Assembly: GCF_053078305.1 (NCBI RefSeq)
Contig: NZ_CP166879.1
Strand: one strand, 5' to 3'
Length of the DNA: 64,000 nt
The notes under the pieces are model-generated. The model saw only the letters and a program-made list of their open reading frames with translations, ran no database searches and was not told the DNA's origin. Made by a program: the position numbers and the translations under genes. Below are positions 3,118 to 60,141 of this stretch, piece after piece (the stretch's first letter is position 1; every line of letters begins with the position of its first letter).

Positions 3118-3342
3118 TTAGTGGTTATTCGCTGCCAAATCGGCTTCGCTTAGCTGGGTGGCCGCGAGCACCTGGTCACGATCAATGCCCTGTTCCAGCA
3201 TGCGCAAAGCAATTTTAATGGCTTGTTCATGCATACCTTCCTGCAAACCTTCTAATTTACCTTGCTGCAAACCTACTAATTTACCTTCTTGCCAGCCAAT
3301 TTGATGTCCTTCCTGCCGTAGCCGTTCAGCAATAGTCATCAA
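3118..3342 (-). CDS. ypaA: Stand-alone Rpn C-terminal-domain protein (ypaA-like; tandem duplicate of the rpnE 3' end)
   Basis: The 74-aa product [21 protein letters not shown]...[12 protein letters not shown] is nearly identical to the last 80 aa of the adjacent rpnE. It keeps its own AAGGAGAG SD ahead of the ATG. Confidence 0.6.
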   Translation of the reverse strand: MMTIAERLRQEGHQIGWQEGKLVGLQQGKLEGLQEGMHEQAIKIALRMLEQGIDRDQVLAATQLSEADLAANNH

Positions 3343-3351
3343 TCTCTCCTT

Positions 3352-3594
3352 TTAATGACAGTTCGGAATATCAGCATCAGTGAGTTGGGTTGCCGCCAGC
3401 ACAATCTCACGTTCAAAGCCCTGCTCCAGCATGCGCAAGGCAATTTTAATGGCTTGCTCATGCATGCCTTCCTGCAAACCTTCTAATTTACCTTTCTGCA
3501 GACCCTCCAATTTACCTTGCTGCAAACCTTCTAATTTACCTTCCTGCCAGCCAATTTGATGCCCTTCCTGCCTCAGCCGTTCAGCAATAGTCAT
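3352..3594 (-). CDS. Candidate nested small ORF (RpnS-like) inside rpnE, using an internal SD+ATG
   Basis: An in-frame ATG at 3594 is preceded by AAAGGAGAGATTA. This is the same SD-ATG arrangement that heads the stand-alone duplicate at 3342. The product would be 80 aa ([11 protein letters not shown]...). Confidence 0.4.
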
Positions 3595-17462: not shown

Positions 17463-17665
<203 letters not shown>

Positions 17666-54774: not shown

Positions 54775-55164
54775 CGGGTGCTTGAGGGGGTCTGCCTCGG
54801 GCATGCTGCCGTAAGGCAGACGGAGAAAAGCCCCAGTTAACATTACGTGTCCTGCAAGACGCTTAACATTAATCTGAGGCCCAATCTATGTCACACAACC
54901 GTAGGTTAGCCTCTTACGTGCCGGAAGGCAAGGAGAAGCAGTCTATGAAGCAGCAAAAGGCGATGTTAATTCGCCCTGATCGTCATCTGTTTAACCGTCA
55001 TAGTGACGGCACTGGTAACGAGGAAAGACCTCTGCGAGGTACGGATCCGAACCGGCCAGACGGAGGTCGCTGTCTTCGTAGACTACGAATCTGAGAAGTA
55101 AGAGACCAGGCGGGGGAGTAATCTCCCGCCACCTCTGATGTGTCAGGCATCCTCAACGCACCCG
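54775..55164 (+). other. hok/mok/sok-type type I toxin-antitoxin transcription unit (full-length mRNA architecture)
   Basis: The 5' CGGGTGCTTGAGG (54775-54787) is complementary to the 3' CCTCAACGCACCCG (55151-55164), as in tac/fbi fold-back pairing. The mok-like leader starts at ATG 54888. Leader sequences resemble plasmid R1 hok (GCTTGAGG..TCTGCCTC..., CTATGTC...AGCCTCTTAC...GCAAGGAGAAG). A 3' hairpin lies at about 55109-55130. Confidence 0.7.
54945..55101 (+). pseudogene. hok: hok/gef-family toxin gene disrupted by a +1 frameshift (extra T at 54970/54971)
   Basis: As written, the ATG at 54945 gives MKQQKAMLIRPDRHLFNRHSDG... Deleting one T restores MKQQKAMLIALIVICLTVIVTALVTRKDLCEVRIRTGQTEVAVFVDYESEK, a canonical Hok/Gef sequence, with stop at 55099-55101. 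Confidence 0.7.
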
Positions 55165-55275: not shown

Positions 55276-58176
55276 ATGCTGCCAGACCAGCGACCAGCGA
55301 CCAGCGACCAGCGACCAGCGACCAGCGACCAGCGACCAGCGACCAGCGACCAGCGACCAGCGACCAGCGACCAGCGACCAGCGACCAGCGACCAGCGACC
55401 AGCGACCAGCGACCAGCGACCAGCGACCAGCGACCAGCGACCAGCGACCAGCGACCAGCGACCAGCGACCAGCGACCAGCGACCAGCGACCAGCGACCAG
55501 CGACCAGCGACCAGCGACCAGCGACCAGCGACCAGCGACCAGCGACCAGCGACCAGCGACCAGCGACCAGCGACCAGCGACCAGCGACCAGCGACCAGCG
55601 ACCAGCGACCAGCGACCAGCGACCAGCGACCAGCGACCAGCGACCAGCGACCAGCGACCAGCGACCAGCGACCAGCGACCAGCGACCAGCGACCAGCGAC
55701 CAGCGACCAGCGACCAGCGACCAGCGACCAGCGACCAGCGACCAGCGACCAGCGACCAGCGACCAGCGACCAGCGACCAGCGACCAGCGACCAGCGACCA
55801 GCGACCAGCGACCAGCGACCAGCGACCAGCGACCAGCGACCAGCGACCAGCGACCAGCGACCAGCGACCAGCGACCAGCGACCAGCGACCAGCGACCAGC
55901 GACCAGCGACCAGCGACCAGCGACCAGCGACCAGCGACCAGCGACCAGCGACCAGCGACCAGCGACCAGCGACCAGCGACCAGCGACCAGCGACCAGCGA
56001 CCAGCGACCAGCGACCAGCGACCAGCGACCAGCGACCAGCGACCAGCGACCAGCGACCAGCGACCAGCGACCAGCGACCAGCGACCAGCGACCAGCGACC
56101 AGCGACCAGCGACCAGCGACCAGCGACCGTAAATCAAGAAAGTCTGTAAAATCTGTTGAACCAGACATTGCCGACCGGGCTAACAGCTGGCTCAAATCTT
56201 ATGGACTTGATTACAAACTGGAGCAGGCACCACTTAACAACGAGATCGATAACGCACTGGATGCTTATTTTTCGAAAAATGGCGGCGCAGGCGGTAATCG
56301 TCCCGACGTAAAACTCCTTGTTCAGGACAAATACGGCAAGCAGTATCCCGTTCTCATCGAGTATAAAGGCTACAAGGACAGGCTTATCAGACTTGGCAGC
56401 AACGGTATTATTGAGAACAAAGATGCCAGAAAAGAATGGAATTTTAAAAATATTAATGGATACGCGGTGAATGGCGCAGTCCATTATGCCAACGCACTTC
56501 TTCAGTTCACCAATTACCCTGATATTATTGCTATTGGTATGACCGGCTGGCGCGATGATGATACAGGCGAACTGCATCATGAAATCGGCGTGTGGTACGT
56601 ATCAAAGAATAATTTAGGAGCCGGGCAGAAGGTTGGTGAATTCACCGACTTATCATTCCTTGCTGACAAAAATGTTGATGGATTTCTCAACAAGATAAAG
56701 CTGCTTAATCTTCCTCCCGAAGAACTGGAAAAAATCAAGGCCAGCAAAGAGGAAGAGATAGACACGCGACTTTCCCGTCTGAATAACGATATTTACCAGA
56801 ATGAAAAGGGGCTTGGTGAAAGCGATCGTGTTTACCTTGTTGTGGCTACCGTTATTGCAACGTTGGGGATTCCGGGAAAGTTAGCACCGCTGGATAAAAA
56901 AGAACTGACCTCTTCAACGGAGGAGGACTTGCGTGATGGTGATATTATTTTCAGGAAAATAAGGAATTTTTTAAGGCTGAAAGCTGTTCCTGAAACAAAA
57001 AGAGAAATGATTTTGCGCTCGTTGCAAAATACGCTGTGGACTGAAAACATTAACAAACCAGTCAACGGTGAAAGCCAGTTAAAGCGCGTGTTTGTTAAAG
57101 TTGTTGATGATCTTGGGGAGTATTACAAAATCGGACTGACCACCGATTTTACGGGCAAACTGTTTAATGAGATGTATCGCTGGCTTGGATTTACGCAGGA
57201 CAAACTCAATGACGTCGTTCTGACACCACCTTATGTTGCCACATTGCTGGCACGACTCGCCAGAGTAAACAAAGATTCCTATGTGTGGGATTTTGCTACA
57301 GGTTCTGCGGGATTGCTTGTGGCTGCAATGAATGAAATGCTCATTGACGCCAGAGAAAATATTCACTCACCGAATGAACTACAACTTAAGGAAGCGCAAA
57401 TCAAGGCTGAACAGCTTCTTGGCCTTGAGGTGTTATCCAGTATTTATATGCTGGCCATCCTGAATATGATTTTGATGGGGGATGGTAGCTCGAATATCCT
57501 CAATAAAGACTCGCTAGCCGATTTTGACGGCAAGTATGGATTTGGGAAAACAGGAGAAAAATTCCCTGCGGACGCATTTATTCTCAATCCTCCGTATTCA
57601 GCTAAAGGTAACGGCATGATTTTCGTGCAGAAGGCGCTGTCGATGATGGATAAAGGCTATGCTGCAGTGATTATCCAGAGTTCAGCCGGCACAGGAAAGG
57701 CTACGGAGTACAACAAAAAAATACTCAAGGAAAATACCTTGCTGGCAAGCATCAAAATGCCTGCGGATCTGTTTATTGGTAAATCAAGCGTTCAGACGTA
57801 CATTTACGTTTTTCAGGTAAAAATTCCGCATAACGCGAAACAGGCTGTTAAGTTTATCGACTTTTCCAATGACGGCTATGCTCGCTCTAATCGCAAAAAG
57901 GCAAGAAACAATCTTGTTGATGCCGATCGTGCAAAAGAGCGTTATCAGGAGGTTGTGGATCTGGTTCACTTCGGGAAAGGTTGCCTTAATATCTTTACGG
58001 AGGATGAATATTTTGAGGGAACAATCGATCCTGATAGTGGTGAGGACTGGAATCAGACTAGGCCAGTAGATACCAGACCGACACTGGAGGATTTTAAAAA
58101 GACGGTTGGCGACTATCTTGCGTGGGAGGTGTCAAAACTTCTTCAGGGGCGTGATGCGTCAGAAAAAAAGCAGTAA
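55276..58176 (+). CDS. Restriction-modification polypeptide: 40 x PATSDQR repeat leader + PD-ExK (HSDR_N-like) nuclease + gamma-class N6-adenine methyltransferase (BcgI-A-like, Type IIB/IIG layout)
   Basis: ATG 55276 follows AAAAGGA. After the repeat come NRPDVKLLV...YPVLIEYKG (PD...ExK), then YVWDFATGSAGLL (SAM motif I) and FILNPPYS (motif IV). No SF2 translocase domain is present. It is followed by an HsdS-like gene. Confidence 0.75.
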   Translation: MLPDQRPATSDQRPATSDQRPATSDQRPATSDQRPATSDQRPATSDQRPATSDQRPATSDQRPATSDQRPATSDQRPATSDQRPATSDQRPATSDQRPATSDQRPATSDQRPATSDQRPATSDQRPATSDQRPATSDQRPATSDQRPATSDQRPATSDQRPATSDQRPATSDQRPATSDQRPATSDQRPATSDQRPATSDQRPATSDQRPATSDQRPATSDQRPATSDQRPATSDQRPATSDQRPATSDQRPATSDQRPATSDQRPATSDQRPATSDQRPATSDRKSRKSVKSVEPDIADRANSWLKSYGLDYKLEQAPLNNEIDNALDAYFSKNGGAGGNRPDVKLLVQDKYGKQYPVLIEYKGYKDRLIRLGSNGIIENKDARKEWNFKNINGYAVNGAVHYANALLQFTNYPDIIAIGMTGWRDDDTGELHHEIGVWYVSKNNLGAGQKVGEFTDLSFLADKNVDGFLNKIKLLNLPPEELEKIKASKEEEIDTRLSRLNNDIYQNEKGLGESDRVYLVVATVIATLGIPGKLAPLDKKELTSSTEEDLRDGDIIFRKIRNFLRLKAVPETKREMILRSLQNTLWTENINKPVNGESQLKRVFVKVVDDLGEYYKIGLTTDFTGKLFNEMYRWLGFTQDKLNDVVLTPPYVATLLARLARVNKDSYVWDFATGSAGLLVAAMNEMLIDARENIHSPNELQLKEAQIKAEQLLGLEVLSSIYMLAILNMILMGDGSSNILNKDSLADFDGKYGFGKTGEKFPADAFILNPPYSAKGNGMIFVQKALSMMDKGYAAVIIQSSAGTGKATEYNKKILKENTLLASIKMPADLFIGKSSVQTYIYVFQVKIPHNAKQAVKFIDFSNDGYARSNRKKARNNLVDADRAKERYQEVVDLVHFGKGCLNIFTEDEYFEGTIDPDSGEDWNQTRPVDTRPTLEDFKKTVGDYLAWEVSKLLQGRDASEKKQ
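55285..56128 (+). repeat. Perfect heptanucleotide tandem repeat (GACCAGC) x 120 plus a partial GACC
   Basis: I checked the phase at the start of every 60-nt line and it is consistent. The six-frame translations are perfectly periodic (PATSDQR / WSLVAGR). I saw no variant unit. Confidence 0.97.
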
Positions 58177-58211
58177 ACTCCCGTCTTGCAGAGCTTGAGC
58201 GGGAGTTTATT
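58164..58211 (+). promoter_or_regulatory. Candidate -1 programmed ribosomal frameshift (or A7 slippage) cassette at the A/S junction
   Basis: A_AAA_AAG lies at 58164-58170 in the correct zero frame (GAA AAA AAG). Then comes a stem, with core ACTCCCG (58177-58183) / CGGGAGT (58200-58206), extendable to about 12 bp over 58172-58211. The -1 frame is the S-subunit frame. Confidence 0.45.
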
Positions 58212-58250: not shown

Positions 58251-59360
58251 TTGTTCAGTATTCAGACACCTAAAAAGAAATTTAATGCCAATAAATTAAC
58301 ATTTAATGGCAACTATCCTTATGTTGCCAGAGGAAGTAACAATAACGGCATAAAAGGATATATAGATGAAGATGAATTATATCTCAACCCGGGGAATACA
58401 ATTAGCTTTGGTCAGGATACTGCGACTATGTTCTATCAGGAAAACGCATATTTCACAGGTGATAAAATAAAGATTTTTTCTCTCAGGCATGGAGAGTTAA
58501 ATTCGCGAATTGCTTTTTTTCTTATATCAGCAATGAAAAAATCTTTTTCAACGTTTAGTTGGGGGAGTAGCTCTTTTAATGAGAATGTTCTCAATAAGGT
58601 AAAGATAAATATACCTACGTTTAATAATGTTCCTGCATATAATTATATGGTAAAGTATATAGAAGAGCTGGAAGCGGCCCATATAGAAGAGCTGGAAGCG
58701 GCCCATATAGAAGAGCTGGAAGCATACCTGATAGCTGCTGGGCTGAGTGATTACCAACTAACGGAAAAAGATTATCTTATCCTGGAACATTTTAAAAATA
58801 TTGAATTTTCAGGCTTTCCTGTTACTGAGTTATTCTCAGTGTGCAATACAGGAAACATATTGTCTAGAGACATCATAGAAAATAGTGGGGATGTTCCTTA
58901 TCTTTGTGCTAGCCGTGAGAATAACTCTGTTAGTTCTTATATCGCCTATGATAACTCACTCTTGGAAAAAGGGAACTGTATTTTTATTGGTGGTAAGACA
59001 TTCGTTGTAACTTATCAGGAGCGAGACTTTTTTTCAAACGACAGTCATAATTTGCGACTCTATGTTAACAATGAGGATGGAAGGACAAAGTTTGCTTATT
59101 TGGGCATTATTTCATGTATTTATAGATCTATTTCACATAAATATTCATGGGGGGATAGTGTTAGTAATAGAAAAATTAAGAACGATGTTGTTTGGTTGCC
59201 AGTAAAAAATAAGTCACCTGACTTTTGTTATATAAATGACCTTATTTCAGTTGTTCATAAGCTTGTCATTAAAGATGTTGTCCAGTACGCAGAACGCAAA
59301 ATGAACGCATACAGGCAAGCTATAACAAGTCGCGGTTATGATGATTCTGGTGTCAGTTAA
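58251..59360 (+). CDS. Specificity (S) subunit with two target-recognition domains (HsdS / BcgI-B-like)
   Basis: 369 aa from TTG 58251. The same frame is open back to 58155 with no ATG/GTG/TTG, and it encodes S-like sequence (RLAELEREFIKSGGKWEEYTIERLF). Two TRD-like halves are separated by a helical IEELEAAH repeat. Low GC. Confidence 0.7.
   Translation: MFSIQTPKKKFNANKLTFNGNYPYVARGSNNNGIKGYIDEDELYLNPGNTISFGQDTATMFYQENAYFTGDKIKIFSLRHGELNSRIAFFLISAMKKSFSTFSWGSSSFNENVLNKVKINIPTFNNVPAYNYMVKYIEELEAAHIEELEAAHIEELEAYLIAAGLSDYQLTEKDYLILEHFKNIEFSGFPVTELFSVCNTGNILSRDIIENSGDVPYLCASRENNSVSSYIAYDNSLLEKGNCIFIGGKTFVVTYQERDFFSNDSHNLRLYVNNEDGRTKFAYLGIISCIYRSISHKYSWGDSVSNRKIKNDVVWLPVKNKSPDFCYINDLISVVHKLVIKDVVQYAERKMNAYRQAITSRGYDDSGVS
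58659..58723 (+). repeat. 24-bp tandem repeat (2 full units plus 17 nt) encoding IEELEAAH in the central helix of the S subunit
   Basis: atagaagagctggaagcggcccat at 58659-58682 and 58683-58706, then atagaagagctggaagc at 58707-58723. Confidence 0.9.
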
Positions 59361-59660: not shown

Positions 59661-59899
59661 GTATCCGTTCAACAGGAATGTTACATACCTCACAATTAAG
59701 TCAGTTGAAGGTTGTCTGCCCGGATGAGAATTTGTTAGAAAATTTCTGCATGGTGAATCCCCCTGAGCGGCGGGGCATATCAGCGTCACAGGTGTTTCTG
59801 TTTTACCTCTATCCTTTCTGTGCGGGTTCAGGTGCTGATACTGAACTCACCGGGAGGCACCCGGCACCATGCAGTATACAGAGATTAGGCATATACCAG

Positions 59900-59924
59900 G
59901 GCCCCTCATAGCAGGGGCCTTTTT
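59900..59924 (+). terminator. Intrinsic terminator upstream of nanS-p
   Basis: GGCCCCT / AGGGGCC stem with a 6-nt loop, followed by T5. Confidence 0.7.
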
Positions 59925-60141
59925 ACATGCAAAAAAAAGCCGCCCCGGGAAGAGCGGTTGGCAAGAAGAAAAGCAATATGAACAATTAATTAACGCTGCG
60001 AATAATACCTTACAGTAATCACCCTGCGCAACTGTGAGGAGTGTATTTCTTTTTTGCGGGTGGTTGTCTTTTTCCCTTGTGTTTCGGGACTTCCGTTCAC
60101 TCCTTATCTTATTCAGTACATTATCCCGGCCGGGAGGATTC

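Follow-up and report, generated by a model that had tools for sequence, protein, structure and literature searches.

In the Type IC enzymes EcoR124I and EcoR124II, two versus three copies of a TAEL repeat in the central conserved region (CR1) of the specificity subunit (S) give recognition sites with N6 versus N7 spacers, and engineered hybrids behaved as predicted (PMC3874165). Half-S truncations in Type I systems yield palindromic specificities (PMC3874165). Reviews describe the BcgI-like Type IIB systems as assemblies of two restriction-modification subunits (RM) and one S (PMC3874165; PMC11997821), and the RM subunits of BsaXI bind one recognition domain each, without mutual contact (PMC11997821). 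In the BcgI and BsaXI literature we found no description of CR1 copy-number polymorphism, of phase variation by repeats or of a frameshift signal. Here we report on a 64,000-nt stretch of contig NZ_CP166879.1 (RefSeq assembly GCF_053078305.1), hereafter the window, in which a perfect 24-bp tandem repeat on the plus strand (58657-58723) lies within the CR1 of an S gene. The array is a hypermutable in-frame length module of this prophage-borne S protein. By analogy with EcoR124I/II it probably also serves as a ruler of recognition-site length, its copy number setting the spacer, a reading to which we give about an even chance.

Tandem Repeats Finder reports the array with a period of 24, 2.8 copies, 100% matches and no indels (unit ATATAGAAGAGCTGGAAGCGGCCC), and the raw sequence agrees. 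It is in frame within the S open reading frame (ORF; 58251-59360, plus strand), where residues I137-Y159 read IEELEAAH IEELEAAH IEELEAY. An earlier sequence-only reading of the window had proposed that one step adds or removes eight helical residues, and the 24-bp in-frame unit confirms this. That reading also gave the repeat as two complete units followed by 17 nt of a third at 58659-58723, which suits the codon register; the maximal repeat, however, starts 2 nt earlier and has a partial copy of 19 nt. By our own arithmetic, the chance expectation for an exact tandem duplication of 43 nt is ~64000 x 4^-43, or ~1e-21 per 64-kb window. Only one other perfect array is found in the window, a 7-bp array at 55285-56128.

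The S ORF, 369 aa from a TTG codon, encodes an exact match to WP_215412877.1 of E. coli and carries two stretches of the Pfam family Methylase_S (E 1.4e-28), while NCBIfam gave no family match for the product. An AlphaFold model built on an alignment of 117 homologues (mean pLDDT 88.8) has two domains of mixed alpha/beta fold with a 33-residue helix between them (residues 130-162) and ends in a 37-residue C-terminal helix (residues 325-361). The first target recognition domain (TRD1, allele 'A', 58251-58637) is placed by this model together with the Pfam stretch 8-149, and the second (TRD2, allele 'X', residues 172-324, 58764-59222) by model secondary structure, with approximate limits. Between them lies the central helix CR1 (58638-58736; pLDDT of the block 81-91), and its partner is the CR2 C-terminal helix (59223-59333). 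Since the modelled helix spans residues 130-162 and the repeat residues 137-159, the repeat occupies most of the central helix. Foldseek matched the model to the HsdS structures 1YDX, 1YF2, 2Y7C, 3OKG and 7BST (E 6e-14 to 3e-7) and to the BsaXI S chain 8W0P_C (E 5e-8). TM-scores against the HsdS structures are low (0.28-0.48), so the relative placement of the two domains in the model is untrustworthy, a problem that the BsaXI authors report for Type IIB S models as well (PMC11997821). The Methylase_S stretches, the AlphaFold helix and the fold matches nevertheless agree in putting the repeat in the central helix between the two TRDs, as had been read from the sequence. The reading frame of S is open upstream as far as 58155, and homologues are annotated from an ATT at 58209; the real N-terminus of S is probably upstream of 58251, or S is produced by frameshifting from RM.

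A fixed copy number, which the sequence-only reading had named as evidence against itself, is not what homologues show, and one to four copies occur in otherwise identical E. coli loci. Loci L002 (two copies) and L005 (three copies), which have the same recognition domains, show 0 mismatches in 2528 + 640 nt of flank. Seven A-Y loci, which combine the TRD1 of the window with another TRD2, have two, three or four copies and differ by 0-2 mismatches per 3.1 kb. Compared with the three copies of the window, L109 and L110 have one copy and 0 mismatches in 400 + 600 nt, and L111 and L112 have four copies and 6-7 mismatches in 1000 nt. Furthermore, two prophages within the single genome of OkiPb01692 carry three versus two copies between identical flanks. 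Members listed in the 90% protein cluster of the window's S have one, two, three and four copies, and among ten IMG/VR contigs nine have two copies and one has three. Because copy number differs at near-identical flanks, the array must change much faster than single bases. The unit preserves the reading frame, and the S ORF is intact in all of the one- to four-copy alleles. In alleles with a variant unit (EASH, EVAH) the variant residue is present in all full units; as it is common to all units of an allele, we infer concerted turnover, or repeated gain and loss. Slipped-strand mispairing or unequal crossing-over between the perfect 24-bp copies is the likely cause of the gains and losses. Two artefactual sources of variation were considered and rejected. 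Collapse during assembly does not fit an array of at most 96 bp, which is shorter than a read, nor its variation among complete long-read genomes. A frameshift at the repeat, which might have explained why RefSeq annotates a pseudogene and a short CDS in place of S in L002 and L005, is contradicted by the intact ORF in both. This annotation is an artefact in which an intact S is split at the 24-bp repeat (L002, 4068-5180).

Variation of the helix in whole modules extends to the wider family. Among the 117 homologues the central-helix segment measures 27, 35, 43 or 51 residues, in 8-aa steps with small loop variants, and the CR2 segment (P317-K350) measures 34 residues in 112 of them. Clustering at 50% identity left 150 representatives, of which at least 78 had two modules and 13 had three, the three-module forms being built of many different unit sequences. 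Where an S gene could be reached, species representatives comprised 39 with two modules, eight with three and three with one. In every three-module species representative the first two units are identical in DNA at 21-24 of 24 positions, while unit and terminal partial unit agree at only 16-20 of 24. P. multocida and N. weaveri have perfect 24-bp arrays of unrelated unit sequence at this position, where Microcystis has a 92% array. The ancestral state is that of two 8-aa modules (for example, IAELEAER-IAELEAYL). Because unit sequences differ between lineages and DNA units are near-identical within each, expansion of the module recurs independently, in distant phyla, and is always recent, the expanded forms being either short-lived or homogenised by repeated turnover.

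The sequence-only reading assigned the locus to a Type I system, which did not hold up. No HsdR or other ATP-dependent translocase was found among the neighbours, namely Q, hok/sok, RM, S, an esterase gene and lysis genes; instead, the methyltransferase carries an N-terminal PD-(D/E)xK nuclease, and the two genes form a conserved module, found without a translocase also in P. multocida, N. weaveri and Microcystis. The RM gene (55276-58176, plus strand; defined by ORF, Pfam, motifs and fold) is in frame (ON) in the window and encodes a repeat-encoded leader, a PD-(D/E)xK nuclease-like domain and a gamma-class N6-adenine methyltransferase. Pfam recognises N6_Mtase in its product (5e-21) and, below the cut-off, VRR_NUC (5.8e-4), and NCBIfam gave sub-threshold matches only, to hsdM and MADS2. 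The methyltransferase motifs are DFATGSA and NPPY; the latter and P60-D61...E79-Y80-K81 are invariant in 53 RM homologues. Neither S nor RM matched any PDB chain in single-sequence or profile searches, and the comparison was therefore made by fold. For RM, Foldseek ranked HsdM proteins and the BsaXI RM chain highest, the latter aligned over 638-703 columns; as the RM model is poor (pLDDT 61), these matches are taken as supportive. From gene layout, motifs and fold matches, the system is BcgI-like Type IIB. It shares with BcgI and BsaXI, of (RM)2S composition, a nuclease-methyltransferase fusion and an S of TRD1-CR1-TRD2-CR2 layout, without a translocase, and its fold matches include BsaXI RM and S chains; at the level of sequence, however, no similarity to a solved chain could be detected. 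Some homologues bear the source-database name 'BgcI subunit alpha/beta', the one hint of a possible sequence homology with BcgI. The survey of RM homologues returned at least 568 matching stretches. The best 80 loci, from which identities were taken, come from Firmicutes, Bacteroidota, Proteobacteria, Spirochaetota, Cyanobacteria and candidate phyla, and in them the RM protein shows 69-74% identity, which is unusually high for a restriction gene and indicates wide horizontal spread.

How might the length of the helix matter for recognition? One unit amounts to eight helical residues, or ~12 A, between TRD1 and TRD2, and the partner helix is constant in length. Gain or loss of a unit would thus alter both the distance and the twist from one domain to the other and, in turn, the spacer of a bipartite target, with the half-site sequences expected to stay unchanged. 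If the scaling of EcoR124I/II applied (4 aa = 1 bp), each unit would add ~2 bp, and from the 12 A of rise by itself no more than 3-4 bp could be gained. By our own calculation, eight residues make two full helix turns plus 80 degrees, and 2 bp of DNA correspond to ~70 degrees. As in EcoR124I/II, an in-frame tandem repeat lies in the helix between TRD1 and TRD2, copy number differs between otherwise identical alleles, the second helix is unchanged and the unit is a multiple of four residues. The two cases differ in that the unit is 8 aa (24 bp) here and 4 aa (12 bp) in EcoR124, in that four natural states (1-4 copies) exist here and the module recurs across many phyla, and in that the enzyme is a motor-less Type IIB RM plus S rather than Type I, with a spacer effect proposed by analogy.

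Several points weigh against a ruler. The analogy is all that connects any of the copy-number variants with a spacer. A BsaXI half-S whose CR1 had lost 8-32 aa at its free end kept the N5 spacer, and the authors doubt that helix length alone determines spacing (PMC9159934). This truncation is not an equivalent test, as it leaves the covalent link between the two domains unaltered, but it calls for caution all the same. Moreover, only one helix of the two changes length, so that the register of the coiled coil must somehow be accommodated; reviewers raised the same puzzle for EcoR124, where it is unsolved (PMC3874165). A change of specificity in a fused nuclease-methylase also risks cutting of the host's own DNA. 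Lastly, the only four-copy locus in a complete genome, L008, has its RM out of frame (n = 1).

Some of the same observations suit other explanations. The array could be a tolerated length polymorphism, in which the helix drifts by slippage between 17 and 41 residues while the recognised sequence stays the same, spacing being set by the seating of the domains and RM on DNA. The BsaXI truncations that retained their spacer would be expected if this were so, as would the hinge in BsaXI CR1 that lets the helices rotate (PMC11997821), and the consistent youth of three-module forms, with their near-identical first two units, fits churn without long-term retention. Conversely, an internal insertion of eight residues alters both the covalent distance and the phase, which truncation at a free end does not; a change of the same kind does alter the spacer in EcoR124I/II (PMC3874165); and variants of two and of three copies, with their ORFs intact, occur commonly in many lineages. 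We consider a tolerated polymorphism unlikely on balance. That the array is an in-frame switch of activity, with one helix length (probably the ancestral two modules) working and the others weakening or abolishing activity and so relieving self-restriction, seems to us more doubtful still, and improbable overall. Two modules are indeed the modal state of the family, expanded forms are too short-lived to diverge, CR1 deletions lowered activity in BsaXI (PMC9159934), and the locus already has two other repeat switches. Three-copy alleles, however, are frequent in E. coli and are found with an RM in frame (the window, L003, L004 and L024), and a second OFF switch adds little where a far more mutable ON/OFF array exists.

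The repeat might, finally, serve mainly as a patch of homology for the shuffling of TRD1 and TRD2, changes in copy number being a by-product of unequal crossing-over. When the S gene of the window was aligned by BLAST with other E. coli loci, alignments started or ended inside the array or at most 14 nt from it, and alleles have been re-paired: the TRD1 of the window occurs with two TRD2 alleles and its TRD2 with three TRD1 alleles. As the sole sequence common to different TRD1 and TRD2 alleles, the 24-bp repeat is their crossover point. Copy number nevertheless differs where both domains are shared and flanks are identical, so shuffling is not required for the change, and as an account of the main role of the repeat we judge it very unlikely. 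It is compatible with a spacer ruler and does not exclude one.

Should copy number indeed set the spacer, the array would rank as the first natural recognition-geometry repeat ruler outside Type IC and the first in a motor-less Type IIB system. It would explain a recurrent feature of hundreds of species and offer a handle for engineering Type IIB specificities, with half-sites kept and spacing changed. The question is directly testable, given that natural isogenic alleles of one, two, three and four copies exist. Among them, E2855 has two copies and JNEC-KY173 three, both with RM ON, and of the alleles with the A-X domains of the window, L022 has two.

The sequence-only reading regarded the 24-bp array as a second variable element of the same restriction-modification locus, and it does stand beside a heptanucleotide array at the 5' end of the RM ORF (55285-56128, plus strand), which Tandem Repeats Finder reports as a perfect GACCAGC x120.6. 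In homologous loci this array has 3-120 copies, in-frame (ON) and out-of-frame (OFF) states are both found, and start codons upstream of it lie in two different frames. Sister S alleles with a different TRD2 carry a further array immediately after the central helix, of the 8-bp unit GGACTCGC in 4-28 copies. Its carriers are L003 (5050-5290), L007, L008, L009, L020, L021, L023 and L024; the window allele is without it. The 7-bp and 8-bp units, not being multiples of three, switch the reading frame, and the 24-bp unit does not. When the 8-bp array is out of frame, S falls into two parts, a half with TRD1 and the helix and an ORF of its own for TRD2. The TRD1-CR1 half protein thus left recalls hsdS genes truncated at repeats, as in NgoAV (poly-G) and the half-S homodimers of EcoDXXI and EcoR124, from which the variation at the 24-bp array differs in being in frame and causing no truncation. 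As a side observation, RefSeq calls spurious 'YXWGXW repeat-containing' or hypothetical proteins opposite the heptamer array in L001-L009.

Between the two genes lies a candidate -1 frameshift signal (58164-58211, plus strand), made up of the heptamer A_AAA_AAG (58164-58170), the RM stop codon (58174-58176) and a hairpin (58172-58211; -20.3 kcal/mol, z = -5.1) with a GC core at 58177-58183/58200-58206. In 72 of 79 loci drawn from different phyla, S is read in the -1 frame relative to RM, and this frame continues uninterrupted past the RM stop. A zero-frame X_XXY_YYZ heptamer stands 0-1 codons before that stop in 76 of the 79 (G_GGA_AAA in 44, G_GGA_AAG in 28, A_AAA_AAG in two and A_AAA_AAA in two), and in a 77th locus, L025, one was found by eye four codons earlier. 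The -1-frame peptide that follows the heptamer reads GK[IV]xxxLxxxLxxV[EK]WGE[YF], and a start codon is not conserved. A 12-bp stem begins 5-6 nt after the heptamer, with 95.7% of cells paired versus 33-49% when partner columns were slid, and five of its pairs have changed on both sides. In 500 shuffles the observed values were reached in 0 of 500 on four of five measures and in 5 of 500 for pairs changed on both sides, and RNAalifold found the same hairpin independently. Across the three codon positions of the -1 frame, the unpaired loop varies by 1.23, 0.71 and 1.51 bits, a coding-like pattern. These sequence patterns suggest a programmed -1 ribosomal frameshift that would make an RM-S fusion alongside RM, which would be a simple means of setting the 2:1 ratio. 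A search of the literature on frameshifting in restriction systems found no paper describing an RM-S frameshift, and together with searches on the heptamer, on BcgI-like systems in Shiga-toxin (Stx) phages and on surveys of repeats in hsdS and hsdM it returned no description of the locus; nor did the literature searches yield methylome or cleavage data for this system.

A more encompassing picture can be drawn, tentatively and with more doubt than confidence that all its parts will hold together. A widespread Type IIB family would possess a modular ruler by which the spacer is retuned in steps of ~2 bp or larger; in Stx-type prophages of E. coli the ruler would be combined with the 7-bp RM and 8-bp S arrays, perhaps also with an RM-S fusion by -1 frameshift that sets two RM to one S, and together these elements would make for combinatorially variable phage-borne restriction-methylation.

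In the window the locus is part of a lambdoid prophage of the Stx type, with Q on one side and the lysis genes on the other, and its neighbours include the Q antiterminator, hok/sok, a sialate-esterase-like gene, a holin and a lysozyme. Of 5426 complete E. coli genomes, 29 contain the module, which occupies 33 places, always downstream of Q in lambdoid prophages and at some loci directly upstream of stx2. In real Stx2 phages (L003, 6736-7976; L024, 6222 onward) the RM-S module stands between the Q antiterminator and stx2A/B, and from this placement RM-S would belong to the late transcript, upstream of the toxin genes. Variability of a module so placed could shape phage-host range and methylation in pathogenic lineages. 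Two genomes hold two systems each in different prophages, OkiPb01692 (L003 and L020) and JNEC-KY171 (L001 and L022), with counts that differ at every repeat array. There are 0 flank mismatches between L003 and L020; for L001 and L022, a gap-free comparison of 2535 nt gives 355 positional mismatches in the RM-side flank (right flank, 1 nt). In strain 2015C-3121 an IS1 element lies between RM and S (L023, 4290-4987), and the RM-S pair of Pasteurella multocida is an insertion that separates mukF from mukE (L025, 1884-5092).

Some further features of the window were noted. At the hok/sok locus (54945-55103 and 54776-54947) hok is frameshifted after codon 9, reading MKQQKAMLI and then RPDRHL..., an intact form of hok is present in L001, and the sok antitoxin RNA scores 97.6 bits. 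The interval from S to the esterase gene contains the sRNA STnc100 (59719-59930). Elsewhere in the window there are two imperfect 24-bp arrays (3234-3292 and 3467-3547) and an 87-bp repeat that overlaps naRNA4/REP-like elements (17496-17664).

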